Below the pieces are notes generated by a model. It saw only the letters and a list, made by a program, of their open reading frames with translations. It was not told where the DNA came from and did no database searches. Positions 3,561 to 21,023 of a stretch of DNA of 64,000 bases are shown piece by piece. The DNA is from an uncultured Lachnospiraceae bacterium (GTDB lineage: Bacteria > Bacillota > Clostridia > Oscillospirales > CAG-272): contig CAYXHC010000001.1 in NCBI GenBank assembly GCA_964464905.1, positions 1,097 through 65,096 on the forward strand, read 5' to 3'. Both the position numbers and the translations under genes were made by a program. Position 1 is the stretch's first letter. Every line of letters begins with the position of its first letter.

Positions 3561-3577
3561 CTATGTTACTACTGTTA

Positions 3578-3583
3578 ATGATA
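3578..3583 (-). promoter_or_regulatory. Probable -10 box (TATCAT) of the SBP2 promoter
   Basis: Same 15-nt block as at 1871-1885. It lies about 35 nt upstream of ATG 3543. Three TGAA-type repeats with an 11-bp period start 23 nt further upstream, at 3606, 3617 and 3628. Confidence 0.5.
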
Positions 3584-3702
3584 CAGCATATTGCGTCTGT
3601 AATGATGAATAATGTGTGAACGTCGTGTGAATTCATGACGAAGGGGGCGGGAGGTAGTCTTTTTTTGCGATGAAGTGCCTGAATGTATTTTCGCAATAGA
3701 AA

Positions 3703-3742
3703 CAAAAAAAGGAAATACACACGCCGATGCGTGTGTATTTCC
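3703..3742 (-). terminator. Rho-independent terminator after SBP paralog 3
   Basis: 14-bp stem GGAAATACACACGC (3711-3724) / GCGTGTGTATTTCC (3729-3742) with loop CGAT. On the minus strand it is followed by TTTTTTTGTTT. Confidence 0.85.
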
Positions 3743-3776
3743 CTTTATCGGAATAAAAATCTAAACCGTTAGAATC

Positions 3777-5255: not shown

Positions 5256-5496
5256 TATCGTGATAGATGTACAAAATAATTTTACAACTAAACCGTTTAC
5301 AAAAGGTTAATAAATTGTGAACGAAAGATTAACATAGTGAGATAATGAATAAAAAAACAAACTAATTGAGAAAAAATCCTCTGCCAATGGTATAACTTGA
5401 CGATTATCTTAAACAAATCTTAAGGTTTTGGGTTATTTTATCTTAATAATGTTTGTGGTACAATTGAAGCGTGAAATGAAAAAGGAGACGATATCT

Positions 5497-6201
5497 ATGT
5501 ACAACATACTCGTTTGCGATGACGAAAAGGATATAGTGTCGGCGCTTGAAATATATCTTTCGGCTGAGGGATACCGCGTTTATAAGGCGTATGACGGCGA
5601 GGAGGCGATAAGCACCGTGAGAACGGAAGAGATACATCTCGTGCTTCTGGACGTTATGATGCCGATGACGGACGGGCTCCGCGCTATGAGGCGCCTGCGT
5701 GAGTTTTCAAACGTGCCCGTTTTGCTGCTGACGGCGAAAAGCGAGGAAACGGACAAAATAGCGGGACTGAACCTGGGCGCCGACGATTACATAACGAAGC
5801 CTTTCAATCCGGTTGAGGTTGCGGCGCGGGTGAAGGCGAATCTGCGTCGTTATATGCAGCTTGGCGGCGGTGACGTGAAGGCTCTTGAAAGCGTTTACAG
5901 CGTTTCCGGCATCGTGATGGACGATAAAGCTCACACCGTTACGAGAGACGGCGAGCCTATATCGCTGACTCCCACCGAATACGATATACTGAAACTGTTT
6001 CTGATGCATCCCGACGAGCTGATGACGCCGAAGCGCATTTACGGCGCGGTCTGGGGCGGCAATTTCATCGGTGGCGAGGGGACCGTTGCCGTTCACATAC
6101 GTCATCTTCGCGAAAAACTTGAATACGATCCGTCCTCACCGAGATATCTTCGCGTTGTGTGGGGGCAGGGGTATAAGCTGTCAAGCATCGTTGGTGTTTG
6201 A
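5497..6201 (+). CDS. OmpR/PhoB-family response regulator (receiver plus winged-helix domain)
   Basis: ORF track gives 5428..6201. I placed the start at ATG 5497 (MYNILVCDDEKDIV) with AAGGAG 9 nt upstream. Receiver motifs are DD, LLDVMMP.DG and LLLTAK. The C-terminal end reads ...HIRHLREKLE...VWGQGYKL, typical of OmpR-type DNA-binding domains. Confidence 0.9.
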   Translation: MYNILVCDDEKDIVSALEIYLSAEGYRVYKAYDGEEAISTVRTEEIHLVLLDVMMPMTDGLRAMRRLREFSNVPVLLLTAKSEETDKIAGLNLGADDYITKPFNPVEVAARVKANLRRYMQLGGGDVKALESVYSVSGIVMDDKAHTVTRDGEPISLTPTEYDILKLFLMHPDELMTPKRIYGAVWGGNFIGGEGTVAVHIRHLREKLEYDPSSPRYLRVVWGQGYKLSSIVGV

Positions 6202-6233
6202 TATAAAAACATAAATATTAAGGAAAGGAACCG

Positions 6234-8156
6234 ATGAAAATGAAAAAACTTCAATGCTACAGATGGGCGCGAGTTGCGGCAGTGCTGCTGGCGGCTGTGA
6301 CGCTTACTGTTTTCTTTGGATCTGTCTTGGGGATCGTCGCTGCAGCAGATCTGGGACTCTATACACAAAGCTATGACAACGCAAAGGAAATGGCAGTGAC
6401 GGACGTGCTCTACGGCAATGCCTACCTTATAGTGAACGCCTACCGTGACAGCTATGTGCTTGGGTATTACTCACATTCACAGGCAAAAGCGCAGATGCAG
6501 GAAGCCGTGTTCCGCAAAAATCTTGATTTTGAGCTTTGGCGCGGGGAAGATATGCTCTATTCGTCTTATTCCGGTGTCGTTCCCGAGTCTGACGCTGTGT
6601 ATGAGCTTGGCGTGGCAGAGTACGGCGAGGGTGAATACAGCGTGCGTTTTTATCTTCTCAAAAACACGAAATGTTACGACGAGATCTATTTTATGGAGCA
6701 TTGGCTCGACAAGCTTTACGAAATGCGGTTCGCGCTCATCGTGATCTGCGTTTTGTCGTTGATCCTGTCGTTTTTGACGTGGCTTTTCGCCGTTTCTGCG
6801 GCGGGCAAGCGCCTCACCCTTGACGGATACGCAAGCGGCGTGCTGACGATGCTTGACCGCGTCCCTCTTGATCTGCTGCTGGCTTTTGCTGCAGCGGCTG
6901 TGTTTGTCGAGGCTCTCATATACGACTTCAACCACGACATAGGAGACATATTTACCGCCGTGCTTCTCGGCGTGTACGTTTTCGTTGATTCCGTATTCGT
7001 CACTCTTTTGTCGATGACCGTGAAGGTGCGTGTCGTAACGAAGACGGCACTTGATAACAATATCACGGCGATGCTTCTCAGACTGGGGTATAAGCTTGTA
7101 GTCCGGATATGGGAATGTATAAAGTCGGGAGCGAGGCTGATGGTGAAAATCGTTCGGTGCGTTCCCATGTTCTGGCGGACGCTGACTGCAACGATCGCCA
7201 TGACGGTGATAAGCTTCGTTATTACGTGTCTGGCTGCCGGAAACAGCGACGCGGCAATATTCCTTTTCGTGCTGTTTTGGCTTGCGGTAACGGTGTGGCT
7301 CTGCTTCTCCGCCTGGAATATGACGATACTCCGTCGGGGCGCCAAGCGTATCGCCGAAGGTGACCTTTCCTATCGCATCGACACGAAATATCTTCTTTTT
7401 GATTTTAAGCGTCACGCCGATGACCTTAACAGTATCAAAAACGGTATGGCAACGGCGGTGGAGGAACGGATGCGCGGCGAGATGTTCAAAACCGAGCTTA
7501 TCACCAACGTGTCCCACGATATAAAGACGCCTCTGACTTCAATAATAAATTACGTGGATCTTTTGAAAAAATGCGGAGTGGAAAATGAAGAAGCAAGAGG
7601 GTATATCGAGGTGCTCGACCGCCAATCCGCGAGACTCAAAAAGCTGACGGAGGATCTTGTAACTGCCTCGAAGGCGTCGTCGGGCGTCGTTAAAGCGGAG
7701 CTTAAGCCCTGCGATCTCGGGATCTTCGTTGAACAGACGGCGGGCGAATATGAAGAAAAGCTTGCGAAGGCGGATCTTAAGCTCGTGGTGTCAACGCCCG
7801 ACTATCCCGTTACCGTGGAGGCTGACGGCAAGCTTCTCTGGCGCATCTTCGATAACCTTATGAACAACGCTTTGAAATATTCGCTTCCGGGGTCGCGGGT
7901 GTACCTGTCTCTTAAAGAAAATGAAAGAGAAGGAACGGTGACGGTGACGAATGTGTCCCGCGAGCCGATAACGCGCGACGGGGGAGAGCTTACGGAAAGG
8001 TTCGTTCGCGGCGACGATTCCCGACATACGGAAGGCTCGGGACTCGGACTCTCTATCGCCAAAAGCTTCACGGAGCTTCAGAGAGGTACTTTTGACGTAA
8101 CGGCGGACTATGATCTGTTCCGCGTGACGGTGAAGTTTCCTTTGCCGGAGGAGTGA
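6234..8156 (+). CDS. Multi-pass membrane sensor histidine kinase (HisKA plus HATPase_c)
   Basis: The H-box is ELITNVSHDIKTPLTSI. The N box is NLMNNALKYS and the G boxes are GSGLGLSIAKS. TM1 is followed by an extracytoplasmic stretch of about 130 aa. Several further hydrophobic helices precede a HAMP-like linker. The gene starts 33 nt downstream of the response regulator stop. Confidence 0.9.
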   Translation: MKMKKLQCYRWARVAAVLLAAVTLTVFFGSVLGIVAAADLGLYTQSYDNAKEMAVTDVLYGNAYLIVNAYRDSYVLGYYSHSQAKAQMQEAVFRKNLDFELWRGEDMLYSSYSGVVPESDAVYELGVAEYGEGEYSVRFYLLKNTKCYDEIYFMEHWLDKLYEMRFALIVICVLSLILSFLTWLFAVSAAGKRLTLDGYASGVLTMLDRVPLDLLLAFAAAAVFVEALIYDFNHDIGDIFTAVLLGVYVFVDSVFVTLLSMTVKVRVVTKTALDNNITAMLLRLGYKLVVRIWECIKSGARLMVKIVRCVPMFWRTLTATIAMTVISFVITCLAAGNSDAAIFLFVLFWLAVTVWLCFSAWNMTILRRGAKRIAEGDLSYRIDTKYLLFDFKRHADDLNSIKNGMATAVEERMRGEMFKTELITNVSHDIKTPLTSIINYVDLLKKCGVENEEARGYIEVLDRQSARLKKLTEDLVTASKASSGVVKAELKPCDLGIFVEQTAGEYEEKLAKADLKLVVSTPDYPVTVEADGKLLWRIFDNLMNNALKYSLPGSRVYLSLKENEREGTVTVTNVSREPITRDGGELTERFVRGDDSRHTEGSGLGLSIAKSFTELQRGTFDVTADYDLFRVTVKFPLPEE

Positions 8157-8231: not shown

Positions 8232-8261
8232 TTGACACAATGCAATTATATGTGTTATCAT
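8232..8261 (+). promoter_or_regulatory. SigA-type promoter for the first surface-protein gene
   Basis: TTGACA (8232-8237), 18 nt spacer, TATCAT (8256-8261), with TGTG immediately upstream of the -10. The conserved leader element starts about 7 nt after the -10 box. Confidence 0.65.
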
Positions 8262-8329: not shown

Positions 8330-8379
8330 TATGGCGGGAAGTTCCGACGGCACGAAAATTTATTTTGGAGGAACTTTTC

Positions 8380-9237
8380 ATGAAAAAGATTCTTGCTCTC
8401 GTAATGGTAGTTGCAATGCTCGCATGCTTCGCTACCGCTACATCCGCTGCAGAAATGAAGTTTGTTGAAGAAGCAAGCTTTGATTTCAGCACCACCGAAG
8501 GCCTCAAGGGCTATACCGCAAGCTGGCCCGGTAACGACCTCATGTGCAACGCTGCTGCTGCAGAGGTTGCTGAAGGCGTTATCGTTGACGGCGCATTCGT
8601 TGCAGGCACCATGGGCTTCGTTGTAGACGAAGTATTTGATGCTACCAACGGTATCAAGATCAAGATGGACATTACCATCGACAAGACCAAGGTTGGCGGT
8701 TCTCCCTGGTTCCAGGGCGTTGCTTCCTTCTTTAATGCAGACGGCAAGTCCGCTGAATTCCTCGCTCTCGCTGGCGAAGAGTTCGAGCACTCCTACGATG
8801 CATACTACCTCAACTACAAGGGTTCCGGTACTCACTTCCAGGCACATACCGGTGACCTCGGCGAAGGCGCTACCGGCAACAATGTTGTTTGGGGCGGCGA
8901 CGTTGCTGAAGACCTCGTTACCGACGATGCTCCCACCTGGAGCGGCACTGTAGAATTCATCGTTGTTCCCGCTGAAACCGGCGCTACCGTTACCATCCTT
9001 GTTGACGGCGTTGACATCGGTCTCCCCAACAACCCCGAATTCGCAAACTTCCTCTCTGACGAAATGCTCGTTACCATCGGTGCTACTCACTACGGCGACT
9101 ATGCACTCGCTTCCACCATTGATAACGTTGTTATCTACACCATGCAGGAAGAAGCTACTCAGACCGGTTTCGCTACTGTTGCTCTCGCAATCGTTGCAAT
9201 CGGTTCCGGCGCTTACATCGTATCCAAGAAGCACTAA
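8380..9237 (+). CDS. Secreted ConA/LamG-like (DUF1080-like) beta-sandwich protein with a C-terminal QTG-TM-KKH anchor
   Basis: ORF track gives 8365..9237. I placed the start at ATG 8380 with GGAGGA 8 nt upstream. The signal peptide is MKKILALVMVVAMLACFATATSA/AE. The C-terminus is EEATQTGFATVALAIVAIGSGAYIVSKKH (motif, hydrophobic helix, basic tail). The fold call is by eye from the beta-rich pattern ending ...STIDNVVIY. Confidence 0.7.
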   Translation: MKKILALVMVVAMLACFATATSAAEMKFVEEASFDFSTTEGLKGYTASWPGNDLMCNAAAAEVAEGVIVDGAFVAGTMGFVVDEVFDATNGIKIKMDITIDKTKVGGSPWFQGVASFFNADGKSAEFLALAGEEFEHSYDAYYLNYKGSGTHFQAHTGDLGEGATGNNVVWGGDVAEDLVTDDAPTWSGTVEFIVVPAETGATVTILVDGVDIGLPNNPEFANFLSDEMLVTIGATHYGDYALASTIDNVVIYTMQEEATQTGFATVALAIVAIGSGAYIVSKKH

Positions 9238-9253
9238 TTATTGGATCAAAAAA

Positions 9254-9278
9254 GGCTCCCTAAAGGGGGCCTTTTTTT
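9254..9278 (+). terminator. Rho-independent terminator
   Basis: Stem GGCTCCC (9254-9260), loop TAAA, stem GGGGGCC (9265-9271), followed by TTTTTTT (9272-9278). It is nearly the same hairpin as at 10190-10213. Confidence 0.85.
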
Positions 9279-9307
9279 AGATGGGCATCAAAATTGTAAA
9301 TAAAGTG

Positions 9308-9336
9308 TTGACAAAGTTTTTATGCGGTGTTATTAT
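9308..9336 (+). promoter_or_regulatory. SigA-type promoter for the second surface-protein gene
   Basis: TTGACA (9308-9313), 17 nt spacer, TATTAT (9331-9336). Confidence 0.7.
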
Positions 9337-9390
9337 GAGATATAAAGTTTTGATGCTTCATCAAAAACAAAAAAACATGGAGGAACTTTT

Positions 9391-10170
9391 ATGAAAAAGA
9401 TTCTTGCTCTCGTAATGGTAGTTGCTATGCTCGCATGCTTCGCTACCGTTGCAAACGCTGCTGCTCCCGAAGGACAGATTGCGTACTACACCTTTGACGC
9501 TGCTGACGAAGCAGGCCTCACCGTAAACGGCGACAACGCTACCTACGCTGACGGCGCTGTTACTCTCGGCGACGCTACTTACCTCACTGCGGACATCGAT
9601 CTTTCCGGTGTTACCGCTATGACCGTTGCTCTCAAGGTTAAGATCACCGATACTGATGCTAACTGGGGCTTTGAGATCACCTCTGAAGAGGCTCACTCCT
9701 GGCCGGCTGAGCATTACATCGGCTGCCTCCTCAACGGCAGTGCTGTGATCGAACGCTACAACAACACCGACGGTCGTCCCAATTCCGCTTCCGCTACTAT
9801 CGCGGTTGACGAATGGGTTGAGCTCGTAGTTGTTCTTCCTGAAGACGGCTCCATCGTTCTTTATGCTGACGGCGCAGAAGTTGCTAACGTTCCTCAGACC
9901 GAAGGCTTCGACCTCGCTATCGCAAACTGCATCGGCGAAACTCCCGTATTCCAGATTGGTAAGGCTAACTGGGGCGAAGGCGAATACGCTGCAGGCACCT
10001 CCATCGACACTTTTGCAGTTTACAACACTGCTCTCTCTGCTGACGAAGTAGCTACCGCTCTCGAAGCTCCCGCAGCAGACGAAGAAGCTGCTCAGACCGG
10101 TTTCGCTACCGTTGCTCTCGCAATCGTTGCAATCGGCTCCGGCGCTTACATCGTGTCTAAGAAGCACTAA
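9391..10170 (+). CDS. Secreted LamG-domain protein with a C-terminal QTG-TM-KKH anchor
   Basis: GGAGGA lies 7 nt upstream of the start. The signal peptide is MKKILALVMVVAMLACFATVANA/AA. The LamG-like hallmark is ...IGKANWGEGEYAAGTSIDTFAVYNTALSADEV, resembling the common ...D.V.IYNRALSA.EI ending. The C-terminus is EEAAQTGFATVALAIVAIGSGAYIVSKKH. Confidence 0.75.
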   Translation: MKKILALVMVVAMLACFATVANAAAPEGQIAYYTFDAADEAGLTVNGDNATYADGAVTLGDATYLTADIDLSGVTAMTVALKVKITDTDANWGFEITSEEAHSWPAEHYIGCLLNGSAVIERYNNTDGRPNSASATIAVDEWVELVVVLPEDGSIVLYADGAEVANVPQTEGFDLAIANCIGETPVFQIGKANWGEGEYAAGTSIDTFAVYNTALSADEVATALEAPAADEEAAQTGFATVALAIVAIGSGAYIVSKKH

Positions 10171-10189
10171 TTCCTGAATGAGCGAAAAA

Positions 10190-10213
10190 GGCTCCCGAAA
10201 GGGAGCCTTTTTT
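10190..10213 (+). terminator. Rho-independent terminator
   Basis: Stem GGCTCCC (10190-10196), loop GAAA, stem GGGAGCC (10201-10207), followed by TTTTTT. Confidence 0.85.
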
Positions 10214-10325: not shown

Positions 10326-11675
10326 ATGAAAAAGATACTTGCTCTTTTACTTGCCGTTATGATGCTGGCAGCTCTCGTTGCCTGCGACGATGGCAGTCTG
10401 CCTCCCGTTGACGGAGAAAGCGATAGCGAAGGCACGGGAACGGGCGAAGGCACCGAAACTGAGGCAGAATCCGAAACCGAAGAAGAAGACGAGGACTATG
10501 TCCCTGACTTTGAAGCGAAATACGGCGGCTGCGTCGGTGTGGGCGTTGAGTCCGGCTCCGCTTACTTCGATAACCTTAAGGTTGTGTCTAAGCAGACCGA
10601 TAAGAAGGAGCTCTACTACGATGAGCTCGAGGGCGAGCTTCCCGTTCTCACTTACGTTACGGGTGCTGAAGCCGATTGGGCTGTTGCTGTTGACCCCACC
10701 GAGGATGAAGATGAGGATGATCCCAACCACGCTCTCGGATACACGGGCTCTTCCGCTTCTATGGTGACCTTCGGTTCCTCCAACTGGAATTACTATCAGT
10801 ATTCCATGAAGGTGTATCCCGTTGACGACACCACAGTTATCGATCTTTATTTCTGCGTTACCGATGCTGATAACTATTTCGTCGTTTCCGTTGGCGGAAA
10901 CGATGGCGATTCCCTTTGCTATCAGGTAGTCGGCGGCGAGAAGACGGCTGTTGCGCCCAGTGTTTACGCTCCCGTTGAGATCGGTGAATGGACCTCCGTC
11001 GGCATTACCGTTGAACGTGAGACCATCGATATCTACATCGGCGGCACCAAGCGCTTCTCTCTCTTTAATGATGAATTCGAATACAGCATGACCATCGCAA
11101 ACAGAGCTACCGTTAACGCTCCTTACTGCGCTTCCTGGGAAACTCCCGGCTCCATTAACGACGGTATGTATCCTGACGCTACCTACGCTTCCGTTTCCAA
11201 CGGTACCGCTTACGGCTCCTGGAGCATGGCAGATATATCCGAGACCATTTCTTACGAATGGGACGAGGCTGTGACTGTTGACGGTATCGGTCTCTTCTTC
11301 TGGCAGGACAAGGAAACCCGTGAATACTGGCTCGAAAACGGCGGTATCCACTCTGCTTCCTACTATACCATCCAGTATCTCGATGAAAACGGCGACTACG
11401 TAGACGTTGAAAATGCTGTTGGTCTTGAGGTTCTCGATGACGTTATGAACCAGACCTTCTTCGATGCTGTTACCACCACGTCAATTCAGGTAACTCTCTA
11501 TAAGTTCACCGAAGAGGAGGATGCTACCTACAGATTCTCCGAATATAAGGAGTATGAAGCAAACGGCGGCGATGTCGATGCTGAAGATGCACCTACGGAT
11601 CCTTCCATCCGCGGACTCGGACTCTTTGAGTTTGAAGTGTACGCAGCAGGCACAGTTGAAAGACCCGAGGAATGA
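10326..11675 (+). CDS. Lipoprotein with an acidic linker, a ConA/LamG-like domain and a C-terminal discoidin/galactose-binding-like domain
   Basis: The signal and lipobox are MKKILALLLAVMMLAALVAC. A Glu/Asp/Thr-rich linker follows. FDNLKV and ...IDIYIGG... strands resemble DUF1080/LamG. The C-terminal half (ASWETPGSINDG...GSWS...ISYEWDEAVTVDGIGLFFWQD...) looks like an F5/8-type-C carbohydrate-binding module. Domain calls are by eye. Confidence 0.6.
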   Translation: MKKILALLLAVMMLAALVACDDGSLPPVDGESDSEGTGTGEGTETEAESETEEEDEDYVPDFEAKYGGCVGVGVESGSAYFDNLKVVSKQTDKKELYYDELEGELPVLTYVTGAEADWAVAVDPTEDEDEDDPNHALGYTGSSASMVTFGSSNWNYYQYSMKVYPVDDTTVIDLYFCVTDADNYFVVSVGGNDGDSLCYQVVGGEKTAVAPSVYAPVEIGEWTSVGITVERETIDIYIGGTKRFSLFNDEFEYSMTIANRATVNAPYCASWETPGSINDGMYPDATYASVSNGTAYGSWSMADISETISYEWDEAVTVDGIGLFFWQDKETREYWLENGGIHSASYYTIQYLDENGDYVDVENAVGLEVLDDVMNQTFFDAVTTTSIQVTLYKFTEEEDATYRFSEYKEYEANGGDVDAEDAPTDPSIRGLGLFEFEVYAAGTVERPEE

Positions 11676-12285: not shown

Positions 12286-14748
12286 ATGACAACTTTCAAG
12301 AGACTTATGAGCGTGCTGCTTGTTCTCTGTATGTTGTCCGTAGCTTTCGTTTCCTGCTCTAACAAGGGCGGCGACGCGAAGGTCGGTAACTATACATATA
12401 ACAGCTACGCAAGCAGTCTCGGAACCAACTGGAACCCCCACACGTGGGAAGTAAGTTCCGATGACGCTATCCTCGGCTACGTAAGCTCCCCCTTCTGCAC
12501 GATGCAGGTTTCCGATTCCGAAAACGGCGTCTACCAGTGGGTGTATGAGATGGCTACCTCTATCGAGGACGTAACCAAGGATCACCAGGACGATCTCACC
12601 AAGTATGCTGTAACACTTCCCGAAGGCCAGTCGGCTTCCGAGACCACCGAAGGTTACGTTTACGAGATCAAGCTCAATGAAGATGCTAAGTGGGAAAACG
12701 GCACTCCTATCAATGCTGACACCTACATCTACTCCATGAAGGCTCTTCTTGACCCCGCTATGAAGAACTACCGCGCTAACCTCTACTATGCAGGCGAATC
12801 TGCAGTAGCAGGCGGTAATGCTTACTACTATAGCGGAGACATTGCATGGGATACCGATCTCATGGGTGCTGAAACCCTCGAAACCATCGTTAAGGGCGAA
12901 GACGGCACTTACACCACCTCTGATGGCAAGCCCATCGCTGTAGCTCTCACCTCCGCGCTTGATTGGCTCAGCGGATACGCTCTTTCCGACTACGTTGACG
13001 CTTACGGCGAAGCATACTTCGGCGTTGCAGATTACGAAACCCTTTCTGCTATGGCAGTTGGCGGCTTTGTACCCGTAACCGACGAAGTTATCGACCTTAT
13101 GGAAGGCGTTATCACCGCTGTTGAAGCTTGGGGCGAAACCAGAGCTGACGTAGCTCAGTACTTCTACTCCGGTACTCAGATGCCTGAGGCTACCTACGAC
13201 GTTGTAGGCTGCTACAAGGTTGACGATTACACCATTCGTTATGTATGCCAGACATACCTCGACAAAAACTACTTCCTCACCTCCTGCACCTCTACCTGGC
13301 TCGTATATGAAGATCTCTACGAAGCAGGAAAGGACACCACCGGTACTCTCGTAACCACTAACTACAACTCTTCTCCTGAAACCACCATGTCCTACGGTCC
13401 TTACAGAATCGAGTCCATGCAGAACGACAAGCAGATCGTTTACGTTCAGAATGAGAACTGGTACGGCTACGAAAAGGAAGGCGACTACCTCGTATCCTAC
13501 ACTCCTTACCTCGTTGACGGTAAGAACGTACAGCGCTACATGACCACCAAGATCGTTATCAACGTTATGGATAACGACGCTGCAAAGCTCGCGTTCCTTA
13601 AGGGTGACCTTGACGACTGGGCTCCCAGTGCAGACGACCTCGTTAACTACGCTATGAGCGAACAGCTCTACAAGGTTGACGAAACCTACACCATGTCCTT
13701 CTTCTTCAACACAGACGTTTCTATGCTCCAGGAGATGGATAACTCCAAGGGTAACATCAACTCCGTTGTTCTTTCAAACTACAACTTCCGTAAGGCATTC
13801 TCCCTTGCAGTTGACCGTACTGAGTTTGTAACCGCTACCGAAGGCTACAAGCCCGCTTACGCACTTATGAACAACCTCTACTTCTACGACGTATACAACG
13901 ATCCTAACTCCTCCTACAGAGGCTCTGATGAGGCTATGCAGGCAGTCTGCGATCTTTACGGCGTAAAGTACGGTGAAGGTACTCCTTATGCAACTCTCAA
14001 GGAAGCATACGACTCCATCACCGGTTACAACCTTACTGAAGCTAAGGCTCTCATGGCAACCGCTTGCCAGGAGCTCGTAGATGCAGGCCTCTACACCGCA
14101 GGTGAAGACATCACCATCCGTATCGGCTGGTCCAAGTCTGCTCTCACTTCTGCTGATAACAATCAGATCGCTCTTATGAACAAGTACATCAACGCTGCTG
14201 TTGAAGGATCCGGCTTCGGCAAGATCACTCTCGAAGGCGTTGGCTCCGTTGAAGACCGTTACGGCGACGTTCCCGCAGGTAACTTCGCAATCGGTTACGG
14301 CGCATGGGGCGGTGCTGCGTTCTATCCTTTCCGTAACTTCCAGGTTTACTGCGACACCGAGCAGTATGCAGGCCAGATCAATGAAATGGCATGCTGGGAT
14401 CCTTCCGTTGAAGAGCTCACTCTCACGGTAGACGGCAAGGAAGTAACTATGACATGGCAGGAATGGTCTCGTTCCATGACCGGTACCGGCCAGTTCGCAA
14501 CTGCAGACTTCTCCGTTAAGCTCGCTATCACGGCTCAGATGGAAAAGCTCTTCCTTGAAAAGTACTACAGAATCCCCTTCTGCGGAACTACTATATGCTC
14601 TATGCTCTCCTACAAGTGCAACTACTACACCGATGAATACAACATCATGTACGGTTTCGGCGGACTTGAGCTTATGACCTACAACTACACCGATGAAGAA
14701 TGGGCAGAATTCTGCGCTGAACAGAATGGCGATATTAAGTACGAATAA
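12286..14748 (+). CDS. ABC transporter substrate-binding lipoprotein, family 5 (Opp/Dpp-type), unusually long at 820 aa
   Basis: The signal and lipobox are MTTFKRLMSVLLVLCMLSVAFVSC. By eye the layout is family-5: ...YVYEIKLNEDAKWENGTPINADTYIYSMKALLDP..., then ...YGPYRIES...VYVQNENWYG... It is followed by Opp-type permeases and ATPases. Confidence 0.8.
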   Translation: MTTFKRLMSVLLVLCMLSVAFVSCSNKGGDAKVGNYTYNSYASSLGTNWNPHTWEVSSDDAILGYVSSPFCTMQVSDSENGVYQWVYEMATSIEDVTKDHQDDLTKYAVTLPEGQSASETTEGYVYEIKLNEDAKWENGTPINADTYIYSMKALLDPAMKNYRANLYYAGESAVAGGNAYYYSGDIAWDTDLMGAETLETIVKGEDGTYTTSDGKPIAVALTSALDWLSGYALSDYVDAYGEAYFGVADYETLSAMAVGGFVPVTDEVIDLMEGVITAVEAWGETRADVAQYFYSGTQMPEATYDVVGCYKVDDYTIRYVCQTYLDKNYFLTSCTSTWLVYEDLYEAGKDTTGTLVTTNYNSSPETTMSYGPYRIESMQNDKQIVYVQNENWYGYEKEGDYLVSYTPYLVDGKNVQRYMTTKIVINVMDNDAAKLAFLKGDLDDWAPSADDLVNYAMSEQLYKVDETYTMSFFFNTDVSMLQEMDNSKGNINSVVLSNYNFRKAFSLAVDRTEFVTATEGYKPAYALMNNLYFYDVYNDPNSSYRGSDEAMQAVCDLYGVKYGEGTPYATLKEAYDSITGYNLTEAKALMATACQELVDAGLYTAGEDITIRIGWSKSALTSADNNQIALMNKYINAAVEGSGFGKITLEGVGSVEDRYGDVPAGNFAIGYGAWGGAAFYPFRNFQVYCDTEQYAGQINEMACWDPSVEELTLTVDGKEVTMTWQEWSRSMTGTGQFATADFSVKLAITAQMEKLFLEKYYRIPFCGTTICSMLSYKCNYYTDEYNIMYGFGGLELMTYNYTDEEWAEFCAEQNGDIKYE

Positions 14749-14794
14749 TTCTGATAACTGAAATAATCATACTGAATACACCATAAAAAAGGCG

Positions 14795-14926
14795 GCAGGG
14801 GGGAATTTGATCCCCCCTGCTAACCTTGATTTTTCGGGTTGATGAAAATTGTTCCTTTTTTCGTTCGAGATCGTTCACTCCGACGTCCCGTTGGACGGGC
14901 ATTCCGAGCGGATCATCTCGAGCGAA
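14795..14926 (+). promoter_or_regulatory. Structured spacer between the SBP and permease genes (two hairpins)
   Basis: Hairpin 1 is GCAGGGGGGA (14795-14804) / TCCCCCCTGC (14811-14820). Hairpin 2 has outer stem TTCGTTCGAGAT (14860-14871) / ATCTCGAGCGAA (14915-14926, one G-U pair) and inner stem CCCGT-TGG-ACGGG. No clean U-tract follows either hairpin. Confidence 0.55.
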
Positions 14927-14984
14927 GAATCAACTATTTTTCACTCTATAATCTACCATCCCTTAAGCTAAGGAGAATAACGTT

Positions 14985-15950
14985 ATGACGAAATACGTTA
15001 TAAAAAGAATCCTTTTGATGTTCTTCACGCTGTTCGTTATTGTTACGATCGCGTTTACGCTTATAAGACTGCTCCCTCAGCAGCCGCCGGACGGACTCGA
15101 CGCGAACCAGCGAAAAGCAGTTCTTGATCGTTGGAGAGCTCTTGGTTATGAAGAGCCCATTCCTACGCAGTTTGCGATCTACCTGAAGAATATCTTCACA
15201 AACGGAGACTTCGGCACGTCCTGGTCTATTGACTACCGTGAGCCTGCCCTTGATCTTCTTTTGTCCAGACTTCTTCCCACCGTTATCGTAAACCTTTATT
15301 CACTGCTGTTCTCCATCCCGATAGGTATCGGCCTCGGCATTTATGCAGCAGTCAAGAAAAATAAATGGCAGGACTCCTTCATAAGCACTATCGTTATGGT
15401 GTTTATTTCCGTGCCCTCCTACGTTTATGCCTTCCTCGTTCAGTATTTCTTCTATTATAAGTGGAACCTTCTGCCTCAGCTCGTTTCGTCTCTTGCGGAT
15501 GCGGGCGGTTCCTGGTTCTCCTGGAAGATGTTCGTAAGTATGATCTCCCCCGTGCTTGCGCTCTCCTTCGGTGAGATCGCAGGTCTTTGCCGTTTCACAA
15601 GAGCAGAGCTTACGGAGACCCTTACCTCCGACTATATGCTGCTCGCACGCACGAAGGGACTTACCCGCGCGCAGGCAACCACCCGTCACGCACTTAAAAA
15701 TGCAATGGTGCCGATCCTCCCCATGATCATTTCCAGCTTCGTTGGCATCCTCGGCGGTTCTATGATCATCGAACAGATCTTCTCCGTTCCCGGCGTTGGT
15801 CAGCTCTATATGCGTTCCATCAATCTGCTTGACTACGACGTATTTATGGTCGATACTGTATTCTACACGTTTATCGGACTTCTTGCCGGCATCGTCGTTG
15901 ATATAAGCTACGGCTTCATCGATCCGAGAATCAGAATGGGAGAAAAATAA
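14985..15950 (+). CDS. ABC transporter permease, OppB/DppB-like
   Basis: 321 aa, six predicted TM segments. The EAA-type loop reads LARTKGLTRAQATTRHALKNAMVPILP. AAGGAG lies 9 nt upstream of the ATG. Confidence 0.9.
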   Translation: MTKYVIKRILLMFFTLFVIVTIAFTLIRLLPQQPPDGLDANQRKAVLDRWRALGYEEPIPTQFAIYLKNIFTNGDFGTSWSIDYREPALDLLLSRLLPTVIVNLYSLLFSIPIGIGLGIYAAVKKNKWQDSFISTIVMVFISVPSYVYAFLVQYFFYYKWNLLPQLVSSLADAGGSWFSWKMFVSMISPVLALSFGEIAGLCRFTRAELTETLTSDYMLLARTKGLTRAQATTRHALKNAMVPILPMIISSFVGILGGSMIIEQIFSVPGVGQLYMRSINLLDYDVFMVDTVFYTFIGLLAGIVVDISYGFIDPRIRMGEK

Positions 15951-15951
15951 T

Positions 15952-17604
15952 ATGGCAGAAAAAACCTTTGATATTAACAGTATCCCGCGTGAGAAATTTG
16001 AATTTGCCCACGAAGGCGAACGCCTTATGGACAAAAAGTTCGATGATAAGCCGATAAGCTATTTCCGCGATGCATGGATCCGCTTCCGCAAGAATAAAGC
16101 GTCCGTTGCCGCGCTTGCTATCATCGTTATTATTGCTCTTTTCTCGTTCCTTTGCCCCGTTATCTCCGGATTCAGATCTACGGAAAAGACGACGTTTGAT
16201 AAAACGTTTATGGACGTTTATTATGCAAAGAAGGGACCGAGAAACGAGTTCCTTGCCAATATCGGCATTGCCGACGGTACCGTTGAGCGCTCTTATTCCG
16301 AGAAATCTCTCGTTTACACCGTTGGTATAGGCGTTGGTGCTGCAGACGGCGATGCTCACGGTGCGACCTTTGAGGAGGGGCTTGCAAGCAAGTATCAGCC
16401 TCTCATAAGAGGCTACAGTGATCCCGTGCTTCAGCAGAATGCAAAGAAGCAGATGGTTGAATATTATTATGCCGATTCCGACGTTTATCTTGAGGTTGGC
16501 TTTATCGAAAAGTCTATCGAGCAGTCCGAATACGCAGCGCTCAAGGCGTGGGAAGAGGAGACCGGTCTTCAGGTCCTCTATCCTCTTGTTGCGAAGAACG
16601 AATTCAATGCAGACCCTGCAAACGCAAACAACTGGTATAAGACTCAGAAGAACAATCCCGTTTCCGTTGATGAAGACGGTAACGTGACAAAGATCAAGCT
16701 TGCCGATCTCCAAAGCGGTAAGGCAGTGCTCGAGGATAATTACGAGCGCGACGCTGAGGGTAATGTTCTTTATTACAAGTACTCCGGAAGCAGCGACTTT
16801 GATACTGCTATGTTCAGAGTCCGTCTCCTTTACTATAACTACTATATGTTCAACAATGGCTTCGCACCCGAATATATTTTCGGTACCGACAGCCAGGGCT
16901 ACGACCTTGCTATACGTATGGCAGATGGTATCAGACTCTCTCTGCTCGTTGCCGTTTTCGTTTCCGTTATCAATTTCGTTCTCGGCGCTATGTACGGTGC
17001 CATTGAAGGATACTACGGCGGAACCATTGATATCATTCTTGAGCGTGTGTCCGATATCCTTGCAGGTATCCCCTTCGTCGTCGTTGCGACATTGTTCCAA
17101 CTCCACCTGAAGGACCCGATGGACCTTTTCTTCAGAAATGAATTCGGTCTTAAGTCTGCAGGTCCTATCGTATGTCTTCTCTTTGCATACGTCGTAACCG
17201 GATGGATCGGCACTGCGTCCAGAGTCAGAACGCAGTTCTACCGCTTCAAGTCTCAGGAATACGTTATGGCAGCAAGAACCCTCGGCGCGAGCGACCGCCG
17301 TATCATTTGGAAGCACATTTTCCCGAACACACTCGGTACTATCATCACATCATCCGCACTCGTTATCCCCGGAGTTATCAACTCAGAAAGTATGCTCAGC
17401 TATTTGGGTATCGTTAAGCTCGGTACAGCGGAAGCAACCTCTCTCGGTACGCTTCTCTCCGATGCAAGCAGCATCTGGACGAACTACCCGCACCTTCTCA
17501 TTTTCCCCGCTCTCATACTCTCTCTCCTTATGATATGCTTCAACCTATTCGGTAACGGTCTGCGCGATGCATTTAACCCGTCCCTTCGCGGTGTGGAGGA
17601 CTAA
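15952..17604 (+). CDS. ABC transporter permease, OppC/DppC-like, with an insertion of about 240 aa between TM1 and the GTD motif
   Basis: 550 aa. TM1 spans about aa 51-72. The canonical FGTDSQGYDLAIRMADGIRLSL motif appears only at aa 310. The EAA loop is ARTLGASDRRIIWKHIFPNTLG. The start lies 1 nt after the previous stop. Confidence 0.9.
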   Translation: MAEKTFDINSIPREKFEFAHEGERLMDKKFDDKPISYFRDAWIRFRKNKASVAALAIIVIIALFSFLCPVISGFRSTEKTTFDKTFMDVYYAKKGPRNEFLANIGIADGTVERSYSEKSLVYTVGIGVGAADGDAHGATFEEGLASKYQPLIRGYSDPVLQQNAKKQMVEYYYADSDVYLEVGFIEKSIEQSEYAALKAWEEETGLQVLYPLVAKNEFNADPANANNWYKTQKNNPVSVDEDGNVTKIKLADLQSGKAVLEDNYERDAEGNVLYYKYSGSSDFDTAMFRVRLLYYNYYMFNNGFAPEYIFGTDSQGYDLAIRMADGIRLSLLVAVFVSVINFVLGAMYGAIEGYYGGTIDIILERVSDILAGIPFVVVATLFQLHLKDPMDLFFRNEFGLKSAGPIVCLLFAYVVTGWIGTASRVRTQFYRFKSQEYVMAARTLGASDRRIIWKHIFPNTLGTIITSSALVIPGVINSESMLSYLGIVKLGTAEATSLGTLLSDASSIWTNYPHLLIFPALILSLLMICFNLFGNGLRDAFNPSLRGVED

Positions 17605-17607
17605 GTC

Positions 17608-19767
17608 ATGGATAAGATTCTTGAAGTTAAAGGACTTAAAATATCGTTCCGTACAAGCAGCGGAACGCTCAAGGCGGTTCGTGATATCTCCTTCGACCTT
17701 GAGCGCGGTAAGACTCTTGCCATAGTCGGTGAATCCGGCTCCGGCAAGTCTGTTACATCAAAAGCAATTCTCGGTATTCTTGCCGGCAACTCTATTATTG
17801 AGGGTGGCGAGATACTTTACGACGGTAAGGATCTTCTTAAGATCACCGAGGATGACATGTATAAGATCCGCGGAGATAAGATCTCTATGATCTTCCAGGA
17901 TCCGCTTTCGTCTCTGAATCCCATCGTTAAGATCGGTAAACAGATCACGGAAGCAATGCTCCTTAAAAATAAGGCAAACCGCAAGGAAGCGAGAGCTGAA
18001 TTTAACAGCATCCTCGCTCTCCTTCGCGAGAATATGATTGCAGCGTCCGGTGCTGAAAATGCGTCGAAGATCGAGGAGATGATCTCAACCTTCGACAAGT
18101 TCTGCATTGAGGCGACCAAGATCGAAACTGAATATAACGAAGCTTCTTCCGTTGCAGAAGAGCTTATCTCCAACATTGAAGACTTCGTCTTTATGATGGA
18201 AAAGAAGCAGAAGCTCGACGTTAAGGCGTCTCTCAAGGAATATGCAGAAAAGCTCGCAAGAGTTAAGAATCAGTTCCTTACAGTTGATCGCGACGAGGAG
18301 CTCACACGTCTCGCGGATGAAATGCTCGCTTTCAGAGCAGAGTATAAGAAGGACGCAAACGCTGAGGGCATGACTGAAAAGGTCATTTCCGTTCTTCGTG
18401 AAGTGCAGGCGGTCCTCCGGCAGGTGCTTGCAACCGAGCGTCCCAACTTCTTCCGCATCGGCTACTATAAGTACTGCGGAAACGACATTTCTCTTAACGG
18501 TAGGACCGTAGAAGAGCTCAACGAGATCACGCTTTCGTATCTCGACGAGAATTATATGAGAGAGTTCATCTCCGTTGAGACTAAGGGCGTTGAACATTCG
18601 TATAATGTTGCCCTCGAAAAGAAGAAGGAGGTTCTCGGAAAGCTTTCTGAAGCAAAGGAATTCTATCGCGGTGATTTCAAACAGAAGGCGGCAGAAGCTC
18701 TCTGCAAGACTCTTTCCGCTGAAGTTGAAGCTTCCATTGACAAGCTGGAGCTGCTCAAGGATAGTACTGCATACACGTTCAGAAGCAGTCTCTCCGGCGC
18801 CGTTGCGCAGTACTTCCGTTTCAAGAAGCAGAATCCTCGCGAGGAAGCACGCTTCGAACGTCAGACTAAAAAGCGCGATGCTCTTATCGCTCGCGGCAAG
18901 ACTGTTGACTGGAAGGTAGTGCCCAAGGTCGTCTACGATCTTGACGAGCTCAAGGCGAACATCGTTTCCATCATTGAGCATCTTGAAGAGCGCTACAATG
19001 CATACATTGCAGGTGCCGATTCTATAGATTTCAAGACACGCAGCTCCGATATCGTAGATCACCTTAAGGAAAAGGCTTCTCAGGTGGTTTACCGTGTAAC
19101 TGCAAGTATGGCAAAGGAACAGGCTATCAAGCTTATGGACGAGGTTGGTATCCACGAGCCCCGTACCCGTTACTATCAGTATCCCTTCGAGTTTTCCGGC
19201 GGTATGCGTCAGAGAATCGTTATCGCTATTGCACTTGCGGCAAACCCCGACATTCTCATCTGCGATGAACCTACCACTGCTCTCGACGTTACCATTCAGG
19301 CACAGATACTTGAGCTTATCAATAAGCTCAAGAGAGAAAGAAACCTTTCCGTTATCTTCATCACACACGACCTTGGTGTCGTTGCGAACATGGCTGACGA
19401 CATCGCAGTTATGTACGCAGGTAAGATCGTTGAATACGGTACGGCTGACGATATTTTCTATGATCCTCGTCATCCTTACACCTGGGCGCTCCTTTCTTCT
19501 ATGCCCGATCTCGATACCAATGAAAAACTCGACGCTATCCCCGGCACACCTCCCAATATGATCTATCCCCCTGTGGGCGATGCTTTTGCAGACCGTAACA
19601 AGTACGCGCTTAAGATAGATTTCGAGGCTCAGCCTCCTATGTTTGAGGTGTCTCCCACTCATAAGGCTGCTACCTGGCTCCTGCATCCCGATGCACCAAA
19701 GGTTGAGGTGCCGAAGATCATTACGAGCCGCATCGAAAGAATGAAAAAGGCAGGAGGTAATAACTGA
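17608..19767 (+). CDS. ABC transporter ATP-binding protein, OppD-like, 719 aa with an insertion of about 360 aa in the helical subdomain
   Basis: Walker A is GESGSGKS (aa 41-48). The Q-loop is MIFQDP (aa 94-99). The signature FSGGMRQR appears only at aa 529-536. Walker B is ILICDEPTTALD. The C-terminal Opp-type extension reads PRHPYTWALLSSMP. Confidence 0.9.
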   Translation: MDKILEVKGLKISFRTSSGTLKAVRDISFDLERGKTLAIVGESGSGKSVTSKAILGILAGNSIIEGGEILYDGKDLLKITEDDMYKIRGDKISMIFQDPLSSLNPIVKIGKQITEAMLLKNKANRKEARAEFNSILALLRENMIAASGAENASKIEEMISTFDKFCIEATKIETEYNEASSVAEELISNIEDFVFMMEKKQKLDVKASLKEYAEKLARVKNQFLTVDRDEELTRLADEMLAFRAEYKKDANAEGMTEKVISVLREVQAVLRQVLATERPNFFRIGYYKYCGNDISLNGRTVEELNEITLSYLDENYMREFISVETKGVEHSYNVALEKKKEVLGKLSEAKEFYRGDFKQKAAEALCKTLSAEVEASIDKLELLKDSTAYTFRSSLSGAVAQYFRFKKQNPREEARFERQTKKRDALIARGKTVDWKVVPKVVYDLDELKANIVSIIEHLEERYNAYIAGADSIDFKTRSSDIVDHLKEKASQVVYRVTASMAKEQAIKLMDEVGIHEPRTRYYQYPFEFSGGMRQRIVIAIALAANPDILICDEPTTALDVTIQAQILELINKLKRERNLSVIFITHDLGVVANMADDIAVMYAGKIVEYGTADDIFYDPRHPYTWALLSSMPDLDTNEKLDAIPGTPPNMIYPPVGDAFADRNKYALKIDFEAQPPMFEVSPTHKAATWLLHPDAPKVEVPKIITSRIERMKKAGGNN

Positions 19768-21023
19768 TGGAAGAAATCAAAAACGGTGAAGTTCTTCTCA
19801 AAGTTGAGAACCTGTGCCAGTATTTCAAAACGAATAAGGCTGTTGACGACGTAAGTTTCGAGATCAAGAAGGGCGAGGTTTTCGGACTCGTTGGAGAATC
19901 CGGTTGCGGTAAAACGACTACCGGCCGTTCCATCATCAAGATCTACGATATCACGTCAGGCAGCATCTATTTTAAGGGGCAGCGCATCTGTGCAGGTGTT
20001 CGTTCATATCTGAACGCTATCTCCGAAGCGAGAAAGTCCACTGCAGAAAAGATCAAGTCTCTTAAGGATGAGATCAAAGCTGATCCCGCAAAGGCAGATA
20101 CGAACAAGGCACTTATCGCTGAAGCGGAAGCAGAACTCAAAAAGATCGTGGCGGAAAACCGCGCCAATATTAAGTCTGCCAATTTCGATCATAGGTATTC
20201 CGACAGAGAATACTCAAAAACGTTGGTTGAAAGGATCAAGACAGAATATAAGGAACAGCTTAAGGCGGCAGAAGGCGATGCTAAGAAGACGGCAGAGCTG
20301 AAGCGCAAATATAAGAACGATCTCCGTGTTGCAAAGAACACGAAGCTCGTTACTAAGATACAGATGATTTTCCAGGATCCCATCGCGTCTCTCAATCCCC
20401 GTATGACGGTACGAGAGATCATCGCGGAAGGTCTCGTTATCAACGGTATCAAGGACAAGGAATATATTGACGAGAAGGTATACGAGATCCTTGAGCTCGT
20501 TGGTCTCGTTCGTGAACACGCAGGTCGTTATCCTCATGAGTTCTCAGGCGGTCAGCGTCAGAGAATCGGTATCGCCCGTTCCGTTATTATGCGTCCCGAT
20601 CTTCTTATCGCAGACGAGCCTATCTCCGCTCTTGACGTTTCCATTCAGGCTCAGATCATCAACCTTTTGAATGATCTTCGTCAGCAGCTCAGTCTTACCA
20701 TTCTCTTCATCGCACACGATCTTTCAGTCGTTAAGTATTTCTCCGATAGGATCGGTGTTATGTACTACGGTAAGATGGTAGAGCTTGCAACCTCCGATGA
20801 GCTTTTCGCGCATCCGTTGCATCCTTATACTCGTTCGCTTCTTTCTGCTATTCCGCTTCCGGATCCCCATTCGGAAAAGAACCGCACGAGGATCGTATAT
20901 AATTCTCTCGCGGAACACGATTACAGTGTTGATAAGCCCTCTATGAGAGAGATCACTCCCGGTCACTTCGTTTACTGTAACGATGCTGAGGAAACACGTT
21001 ACAAGAAGGAGCTTGGTCTGTGA
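19767..21023 (+). CDS. ABC transporter ATP-binding protein, OppF-like, 418 aa with an insertion of about 110 aa between Walker A and the Q-loop
   Basis: Walker A is GESGCGKT (aa 43-50). The Q-loop QMIFQDP appears only at aa 199-205. The signature is FSGGQRQR and Walker B is LLIADEPISALD. The ATG overlaps the upstream TGA by 1 nt. Confidence 0.9.
   Translation: MEEIKNGEVLLKVENLCQYFKTNKAVDDVSFEIKKGEVFGLVGESGCGKTTTGRSIIKIYDITSGSIYFKGQRICAGVRSYLNAISEARKSTAEKIKSLKDEIKADPAKADTNKALIAEAEAELKKIVAENRANIKSANFDHRYSDREYSKTLVERIKTEYKEQLKAAEGDAKKTAELKRKYKNDLRVAKNTKLVTKIQMIFQDPIASLNPRMTVREIIAEGLVINGIKDKEYIDEKVYEILELVGLVREHAGRYPHEFSGGQRQRIGIARSVIMRPDLLIADEPISALDVSIQAQIINLLNDLRQQLSLTILFIAHDLSVVKYFSDRIGVMYYGKMVELATSDELFAHPLHPYTRSLLSAIPLPDPHSEKNRTRIVYNSLAEHDYSVDKPSMREITPGHFVYCNDAEETRYKKELGL

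Follow-up and report, generated by a model that had tools for sequence, protein, structure and literature searches.

A proline-less LPXTG-like C-terminal tail on two secreted LamG-like proteins of an uncultured Lachnospiraceae bacterium: a candidate sortase sorting signal

Introduction

Two neighboring genes in a 64,000-nucleotide stretch of contig CAYXHC010000001.1 from an uncultured Lachnospiraceae bacterium (assembly GCA_964464905.1; the whole stretch is hereafter called the window) encode secreted, LamG-like proteins that end in almost the same tail: a short motif closing in Q-T-G, a hydrophobic helix, and a few basic residues. The question raised by this locus is whether such a tail, with T-G and no Leu-Pro before it, simply holds the proteins in the membrane or is read by a sorting enzyme. 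The original prediction, made from the sequence of the window, allowed for both. Here, we compare the tail with those of related proteins, with curated models of sorting signals, and with its gene neighborhoods. The explanation towards which we lean, with slight confidence, is that the tail represents a Pro-less, lineage-specific form of a sortase-type cell wall sorting signal, nearest to the (S/P)PXTG and NPXTG signals of the clostridial class B style. We see in it a modest departure from a known theme, an offshoot of a small, uncurated, clade-specific family of sortase-like signals.

Two unlike proteins with the same tail

Both proteins have an N-terminal signal peptide of the form MKKILALVMVVAMLACFAT(A/V)..A-A, with predicted cleavage between the last two residues, and their C termini read EEATQTG-FATVALAIVAIGSGAYIV-SKKH (gene 1) and EEAAQTG-FATVALAIVAIGSGAYIV-SKKH (gene 2). 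Positions 9148 to 9237 translate to EEATQTGFATVALAIVAIGSGAYIVSKKH and positions 10081 to 10170 to EEAAQTGFATVALAIVAIGSGAYIVSKKH, each followed by its stop codon. These are exactly the intervals in which the original prediction placed a tripartite tail, although its hydrophobic stretch of about 19 residues is in fact 18 residues long (F...V). A six-frame scan of the window for a third open reading frame (ORF) with a TG motif, a transmembrane (TM) segment, and a basic tail found none.

The two tails are identical at 28 of 29 residues in protein and at 94% in DNA, on gene bodies with no detectable DNA similarity. Apart from the tail, the genes share their 5' ends, comprising the ribosome binding site and signal peptide (85 nucleotides, 93% identical; window positions 8345 to 8430 versus 9378 to 9460), and the tail itself belongs to a shared 3' end that continues into the terminator (133 nucleotides, 89.5% identical; 9148 to 9277 versus 10081 to 10213). 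Because near-identical tails sit on unlike bodies and the tail recurs on more than 30 proteins in other genomes, its sharing is not a coincidence.

A whole-protein homology search returned 35 relatives, 33 of which have the same tail, nearly all in the form A-P-Q-T-G-[FV]-A-T...S-G-A-Y-I-V-S-K-K. The consensus of the family is A-P-x-T-G-[FV]-A-T-(10 amino acids)-S-G-A-Y-[IV]-V-S-K-K. When a DNA pattern for the tail was run against a species-representative genome set, it found 20 stretches in 15 Clostridia metagenome-assembled genomes (MAGs), with one to three tail genes per stretch, usually in tandem. The MAGs comprise rabbit gut "Lapin" Clostridia, "Eubacteriales," two assemblies labeled Lachnospiraceae, and anaerobic digester Clostridiales; a metagenome scan yielded six loci, every one of them belonging to the digester lineage just named. 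An alignment of the 50-amino-acid tail searched against a set of 5.8 billion proteins returned nothing at an E value of ≤10.

For the counts at each motif position, and for the substitution analysis below, tails were picked by a pattern that fixes T-G-x-A-T...G-A-Y-x-V-x-K-K (ten positions). Of the 33 distinct tails, 29 begin the motif with Ala; at the "Pro" position, 22 have P, 7 have A, 3 have S, and 1 has T, and x is Q, A, or V. The forms seen in relatives include APQTG, APATG, APVTG, APSTG, APETG, and SPTTG, and the divergent members recovered by an exhaustive profile search all have Pro (APSTG, APETG, SPTTG, and, on a 1350-amino-acid protein, APQTG). With P..TG fixed around a freely varying x, the family carries the signature of LPXTG, and [AS]-P-x-T-G, judged by its sequence, is an ordinary LPXTG-like pentapeptide pattern. 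The ATQTG and AAQTG of the window are, as the relatives indicate, derived Pro-to-Thr and Pro-to-Ala variants of this Pro-bearing family. The motif was originally given as (A/T)QTG without Leu-Pro, a description that is accurate for the two window copies and not for the motif as such, which in most relatives is [AS]-P-x-T-G.

Both states of the motif occur close to the window. A pair of orthologues in JAZMZX01, 84% identical to the window proteins, combines APQTG with AAQTG, and APQTG occurs three times in JAZNDW01, the next relative. In at least four further assemblies (CANQMJ, CANPXS, CANRKP, and CANQYV), every sampled QTG tail is Pro-less (AAQTG, ASQTG, or ATQTG), yet TG..AT..SGAY..SKK is kept; as the rest of the tail is unchanged in these assemblies, whatever reads the signal would have no strict need of Pro. 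In an alignment recruited by whole-protein similarity, without a motif filter, T, G, A, and T, followed by A, A, S, G, A, Y, V, K, and K, are invariant. Many relatives also have, ahead of the motif, a long low-complexity linker rich in G, S, T, P, and D, which by analogy appears typical of wall-spanning regions.

Conservation of the tail

Over 24 tail codons, the mean proportion of synonymous differences (pS) between genomes is 0.52 and that of nonsynonymous differences (pN) is 0.11 (pN/pS, ∼0.22), and within genomes pS is 0.28 (up to 0.7) and pN is 0.04, with pN biased downwards in both cases by the positions fixed in the selection pattern. Substantial synonymous divergence at low pN implies that the amino acid sequence of the tail is itself selected; by this measure, the tail is under purifying selection.

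The cassette-like layout of the gene ends suggests gene conversion, or concerted evolution, between the paralogues, which would offer a simple route by which both window copies came to be Pro-less. It is conceivable that the shared ends result mainly from such concerted evolution, serving as homology arms, and that the tail has no sorting information beyond its hydrophobicity. The restriction of similarity between the window genes to the 5' and 3' ends fits this explanation, as does the greater likeness of tails within genomes than between them (pS, 0.28 versus 0.52). However, within-genome pS values reach 0.7 while pN stays near 0.04, the between-genome pN/pS is ∼0.22, and conversion accounts for the joint loss of Pro but not for the conservation of the peptide. 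We therefore regard this explanation as highly improbable.

Similarity to known sorting signals

We scored the tails against NCBIfam 20.0, and a model was taken as unmatched when four representative tails gave no hit at an E value of ≤10. Sortase signal models were the only sorting signal models matched by the QTG tails. Against NF033846 (Rumino_NPXTG; cutoff, 23.5 bits; motif, N-P-x-T-G), the window tails scored 15.0 to 15.5 bits and the relatives 19 to 22.3 bits over model positions 2 to 30 of 30, none of them reaching the cutoff. This match was lost when the pentapeptide was scrambled; restoring Pro added 3 bits, and an NPQTG variant scored 22.6 bits. Against TIGR01167 (LPXTG_anchor; cutoff, 15.9 bits), the relatives scored 13.9 to 14.1 bits and the window tails were unreported. 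The window proteins have the architecture of this class, with a signal peptide (MKKILALVMVVAMLACFAT...), 18 hydrophobic residues, and SKKH, and they have A-T-Q-T-G or A-A-Q-T-G in the place of L-P-x-T-G; changing ATQTG to LPQTG took the tail past the cutoff (16.6 versus 15.9 bits). TIGR03065, the QVPTGV-class sortase B signal, gave 13 to 19 bits against a cutoff of 21.35, with only model positions 14 to 31 (the TM part) aligned and without the QVPTGV motif. Since scrambling of the motif left this match the same, it reflects TM composition only.

A further comparison was with the (S/P)PXTG pattern at 17 to 45 residues from the C terminus. The window copies lack it, APxTG in 22 of the 33 tails comes near it, and it is present as SPTTG in P0089 (locus L015, 5784 to 7481). 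P0089 is one of the larger paralogues (565 to 689 amino acids) of the LamG family, and its SPTTGF stands on the TM tail of the family; another such paralogue, in L019 (624 to 2693), has PPQTGD. Paralogues in L021 (2663 to 4726 and 5071 to 7068) have a PGKTGD signal that passes TIGR01167 at 17.6 bits, so the lineage has bona fide sortase-type substrates by a curated criterion.

No exosortase, rhombosortase, archaeosortase, or Cys-type signal model was matched. The window tail sequence has no PEP, GG, or PGF motif, and the tail has no Cys, the residue that is invariant in MYXO-CTERM, JDVT-CTERM, Synerg-CTERM, and CGP-CTERM. A resemblance to PGF-CTERM (TGF versus PGF) was also considered and set aside, as it found no profile support. 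The sortase- or exosortase-like architecture of the original prediction is thus borne out in its tripartite layout and its nearness to sortase signal models, while its exosortase half found no match.

Search for a processing enzyme

No TLxTC-type sortase ORF was found in the window or in ∼38 related loci, and no Sortase Pfam family occurs in any annotated neighborhood of the loci fetched. Ten otherwise unassigned ORFs of the window (of ∼55 genes) had no sortase Pfam match, in agreement, as far as tested, with the earlier statement that the window holds no sortase gene. Sortases with a housekeeping role are commonly encoded apart from their substrates, which makes the absence of such an enzyme from the sampled loci weak evidence.

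A different enzyme does recur beside the tail genes. In six related genomes (L005, L006/L023/L030, L010/L025, L013, L015, and L021), Lgt, a CPBP/Rce1-like protease, and one to five tail genes follow one another on the same strand; in L013 and L021, the sampled stretch ends within the CPBP gene, with Lgt outside it. The tail could accordingly be a Cys-less substrate of an Lgt-linked glutamic intramembrane protease of the CPBP type, a Gram-positive counterpart of myxosortase, which would read the conserved A..A..GSGAY helix, cut near T-G, and release or reanchor the protein. The conservation of the TM helix would suit recognition by an enzyme that works within the membrane. The tail-linked CPBPs are 40 to 82% identical to one another; the Lgt-linked CPBPs keep the EExxxR, FxxxH, and HxxxN/D motifs, and their best NCBIfam matches are myxosortase family models (MrtJ and Mrt_core), all far below cutoff. 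In L034, L035, and L038, orthologous Lgt-CPBP pairs are flanked by Cys-containing signals, which fits a model of Lgt followed by myxosortase (PMC11980579).

We also searched from the side of the enzymes and inspected eight orthologue contexts. The pair of Lgt and CPBP (∼260 to 290 amino acids) is tightly coupled and often overlapping across Clostridia, with CPBP identities of only 36 to 50%, and in L031, L032, and L037, it lies among housekeeping genes without tail genes (the L037 contig ends just past the CPBP). The conserved unit is therefore Lgt-CPBP and not CPBP-tail. Moreover, no Lgt-CPBP pair adjoins the tail genes in the window subclade (the window, L017/L022, and L020), in which they lie downstream of a two-component system instead. 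The window itself has a single CPBP, a distant paralogue that shares ∼27% identity with the Lgt-linked CPBPs and is encoded 18 kb away on the minus strand (27042 to 28226), and the QTG tails lack the Cys that is invariant in all known CPBP-processed signals (bioRxiv 10.1101/2023.06.07.544157; PMC11980579). We consider processing of the QTG tail by such a protease quite improbable.

Several observations on these enzymes stand apart from the QTG tail. The window CPBP, 394 amino acids long and encoded between cysS and a serine acetyltransferase-like gene, has an N-terminal zinc ribbon-like CxxC...CxxC and a C-terminal Rce1-like/CPBP domain (Pfam, 2.2e-23) with EELIFR, FGIAH, and HAAFN intact. In L005, Lgt occurs a second time, as a paralogue 4 kb away. 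The proteins that flank the pair in L034, L035, and L038 are secreted, have ∼500 amino acids, and end in tripartite Cys-containing signals (...DDGCASAVFSGGALLLLVAAAFVATKKH, ...EGGCGGF[IV]GGSIVVACAILGSAWVSKRR, and ...DEGCASLIISSGSVLALLAAAFVVSKRK) that follow the pattern (D/E)-G-C-[GA]-[SG], TM segment, and KK/KR. LamG paralogues of the window family with ...EGGCGSTLGAAAA..FGCA[IV][IV]KKH were found in L008 and as P0058, P0134, P0137, P0139, P0141, and P0154. None of the Cys tails passes an NCBIfam model; there are weak matches to the ends of MYXO-CTERM and Synerg-CTERM only. By analogy, an Lgt-CPBP operon with Cys-tail substrates in monoderm Clostridia may be an undescribed counterpart of the myxosortase pathway, with Lgt lipidating. 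If true, this would extend the pathway to Gram-positive bacteria and name Lgt as its lipidating enzyme.

Sortase substrate or membrane anchor

If the tail is a sortase signal, the N-terminal signal peptide would take the LamG/CBM40-like domain across the membrane, and the 18-residue helix and KKH tail would retain the precursor there with x-x-Q-T-G exposed on the outer face. A sortase encoded elsewhere in the genome would then cut between Thr and Gly and join Thr to a peptidoglycan precursor; we infer both this cleavage and the identity of the enzyme as a sortase. The outcome would be two glycan-binding modules beside a lipoprotein paralogue and an Opp-type ATP-binding cassette (ABC) importer, under the adjacent two-component system. 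That the tail family as a whole is sortase dependent we regard as likely, and, given such dependence, it is reasonably probable that the Pro-less copies are still processed.

A number of observations weigh against a sortase signal. All profile scores of the window tails are below cutoff, and their match to TIGR03065 lies in the TM part; conservation of the TM helix far exceeds that seen in generic LPXTG proteins; the low pN has the downward bias mentioned above; and the sampled loci are without a sortase. The linkers before the motif are very short in the window proteins (∼5 and ∼12 residues). Both window copies are Pro-less, and in Clostridioides difficile, SrtB leaves a Pro-less NVQTG peptide uncleaved in vitro (PMC4155245), and SPSTG and SPQTG proteins are unprocessed in vivo (PMC5569036).

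Much of this would suit a permanent, uncleaved type I membrane anchor with KKH inside. This might apply to the family at large or be confined to the Pro-less copies, in which case those copies would be sortase signals that have decayed. In such an anchor, the face of small residues conserved along the helix (A..A..A..GSGA) would serve for packing with a membrane partner and so explain the strongly conserved TM sequence, and the very short linkers would hold the lectin domain close to the membrane, beside the lipoprotein and ABC transporter. Pro is gone from both window copies and from 11 of the 33 tails, and in C. difficile, proteins with unused motifs stay in the membrane, as does one whose motif was deleted, held by its hydrophobic segment and charged tail (PMC5569036, PMC4155245). 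On the other hand, T-G and its flanks are invariant despite the loss of Pro while x is free, as in an enzyme recognition site and not a helix cap. Relatives have long linkers of the wall-spanning type, and the similarity to the NPXTG model depends on the motif and is lost on scrambling. Taken together, we judge a plain anchor, the main rival, unlikely and retain the sortase signal as our preferred explanation.

Passenger domains and locus context

The original prediction called both proteins lectin-like. This is clear for protein 2, which matches Pfam Laminin_G_3 at 3.7e-14 (53.6 bits; gathering score, 27.6), and less so for protein 1, whose weak match (8.4e-4, 19.9 bits) is under the gathering score. 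An AlphaFold2 (AF2) model of protein 2 (predicted local distance difference test score [pLDDT], 86) has a beta-sandwich at residues 29 to 211; the domain ends near residue 222, and a helix runs from residue 236. Its top PDB matches are CBM40 sialic acid-binding modules (5fra; E value, 7e-9), pneumococcal sialidase lectin domains, and domain 4 of the arabinanase AbnA. By both Pfam score and fold, protein 2 belongs to the LamG/concanavalin A-like group.

Each of the two genes has, by sequence pattern, its own promoter and terminator on the plus strand (Table 1). The start of gene 1 is most likely the ATG at 8380, the first in-frame ATG, which gives a product identical to P0029, and not the TTG at 8365. 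Both signal peptides contain a lipobox-like M-L-A-C (8422 to 8427 and 9433 to 9438; Cys16), and the proteins were therefore considered as N-terminal lipoproteins. At the position of Cys16, about half of the orthologues have [LIV]-[AS]-C and the rest have A, T, or L, and we set this assignment aside as the less likely one. Because the hydrophobic region runs on to the AxA site, cleavage by signal peptidase I at AxA appears more likely than lipidation at Cys16 in both window proteins.

The order of two-component system, tail genes, lipoprotein, and transporter is kept in L022. The C-terminal region of the LamG-like lipoprotein (10326 to 11675) matches beta-L-arabinobiosidase HypBA2 (1.9e-8), and the SBP_bac_5 lipoprotein of the Opp-type transporter is unusually large (820 amino acids). 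Given a locus with a two-component system, a LamG-like lipoprotein, and an ABC importer, either mode of anchoring would put two glycan-binding modules at the cell surface, which points to a role in substrate capture.

Upstream, the window has three tandem paralogous genes for solute-binding-type lipoproteins (2082 to 5274, also 398 to 1847). Two of the copies (2086 to 3720 and 3781 to 5274) repeat with a period of 1695 nucleotides and match at 100% over the stretch that was compared, which reflects either duplication in the very recent past or an artifact of assembly. A fourth paralogue lies at 33925 to 35427 on the minus strand. Lipoproteins of ∼490 amino acids that recur near tail genes (family F1) were considered as a sorting factor and dismissed, being solute-binding lipoproteins.

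The tail is unrecognized by curated models (NCBIfam 20.0 and Pfam), and consequently its proteins are annotated merely as "LamG domain-containing" or hypothetical, and their localization is missed. A dedicated A-P-x-T-G...SGAY[IV]VSKK profile would flag surface glycan-binding proteins in uncultured Clostridia of the rabbit gut, livestock, and digesters.

Table 1. Coordinates of the tail genes, their parts and neighbors in the window, and of Lgt-CPBP pairs and Cys-tail proteins in related loci
Feature	Position	Strand	Remarks
Response regulator and sensor histidine kinase, immediately upstream	5428..8156	+	Syntenic L022 Pfam: Response_reg/Trans_reg_C, HisKA/HATPase_c
Sigma-70-like promoter, gene 1	8232..8261	+	TTGACA-18-TATCAT, extended -10 TG; 11/12 matches; consensus match only
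Gene 1, secreted LamG-like protein with C-terminal tail, 285 aa (P0029)	8380..9237	+
Gene 1 signal peptide MKKILALVMVVAMLACFATATSA	8380..8448	+	Cleavage site by inspection
Gene 1 pentapeptide A-T-Q-T-G	9154..9168	+	At LPXTG position
Gene 1 hydrophobic segment FATVALAIVAIGSGAYIV, 18 aa	9169..9222	+	Mean Kyte-Doolittle value, 2.28
Gene 1 basic tail SKKH and stop codon	9223..9237	+
Gene 1 3' hairpin and T-run	9257..9279	+	Intrinsic terminator-like
Sigma-70-like promoter, gene 2	9308..9336	+	TTGACA-17-TATTAT; 11/12 matches
Gene 2, secreted LamG/CBM40-like protein with C-terminal tail, 259 aa (P0001)	9391..10170	+
Gene 2 pentapeptide A-A-Q-T-G	10087..10101	+	AF2 model: residues 231-238 disordered, directly before helix 236-249
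Gene 2 hydrophobic segment FATVALAIVAIGSGAYIV	10102..10155	+
Gene 2 basic tail SKKH and stop codon	10156..10170	+
Gene 2 3' hairpin ggctccc-gaaa-gggagcc, then T-run	10190..10213	+	Terminator-like; direct reading, not in hairpin-scan list
Third LamG-like protein, lipoprotein (lipobox LVAC), no C-terminal tail	10326..11675	+	Syntenic in L022
Opp-type ABC transporter (SBP_bac_5 lipoprotein, two permeases, two ATPases)	12286..21023	+	Syntenic L022 annotation
Lgt-CPBP pair	L023 6955-8612
Lgt-CPBP pair	L005 5329-6937
Lgt-CPBP pair	L015 1-1750
Lgt-CPBP pair	L031 7078-8846
Lgt-CPBP pair	L032 7160-8795
Lgt-CPBP pair	L034 7174-8816
Lgt-CPBP pair	L035 6140-7656
Lgt-CPBP pair	L037 7223-8801
Lgt-CPBP pair	L038 3158-4908
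Cys-tail protein	L034 5491-6975
Cys-tail proteins	L035 4557-6131, 7875-9434
Cys-tail protein	L038 1466-2980
Cys-tail protein	L008 1356-2447

Comparison with known systems

The closest experimentally studied system is that of C. difficile SrtB, a class B-type sortase with (S/P)PXTG substrates (PMC4155245, PMC5569036). The tail family shares with these substrates a small residue or Pro in the place of Leu, P-x-T-G, a TM segment, and a basic tail; SPTTG occurs on the TM tail of the family (P0089 of L015), and SPQTG is itself a C. difficile motif. It differs in that C. difficile has a charged residue after TG, whereas the tail family continues directly with hydrophobic F/V-A-T, in its conserved TM sequence, and in the A or T that replaces Pro in the window copies. 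The C. difficile surface protein CbpA (CD3145), with NVQTG, resembles the window proteins in its Pro-less x-x-Q-T-G, TM segment, and charged tail and poses the same ambiguity. NVQTG is uncleaved by SrtB in vitro and is considered probably no true sortase substrate (PMC4155245, PMC5569036), but the Pro-less forms of the window, unlike NVQTG, sit in a family with a Pro majority.

In the published model for MYXO-CTERM, the invariant Cys is first lipidated in an Lgt-like step, after which a CPBP cleaves the signal (PMC11980579). The QTG tail is similar in being a tripartite signal with a conserved TM helix and in having CPBP (and Lgt) beside arrays of tail genes in six related genomes, but it has no Cys, the window subclade has no Lgt-CPBP adjacency, and the CPBPs score far under every Mrt cutoff.

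Like Rumino_NPXTG (NF033846), the tail is a tripartite C-terminal domain of ∼30 residues in Clostridia, and its match depends on x-P-x-T-G; unlike it, the family begins the motif with Ala or Ser instead of Asn, and the window copies are also without Pro. With TIGR01167/Gram_pos_anchor, it has the same architecture and the T-G core in common, but there is no Leu, the window copies have no Pro, and natural tails are below cutoff or unreported. LAXTG is the signal of class E sortases. It has Ala for Pro, as in AAQTG, and indicates that sortases can specialize in a Pro-less pentapeptide, although it belongs to another phylum, begins with Leu, and is compared here by motif resemblance alone. LAXTG is among the recognized actinobacterial sortase motifs, with Ala at the Pro position (PMC13251363).

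The Pro-less lineages, in which the remainder of the signal is kept under purifying selection, offer a natural test of how far clostridial sortases tolerate the loss of Pro or of how a signal decays into a plain anchor. The precedent for them is two-sided: by analogy, clostridial Pro-less motifs may be dead sortase sites, and LAXTG points to tolerance of Ala for Pro.

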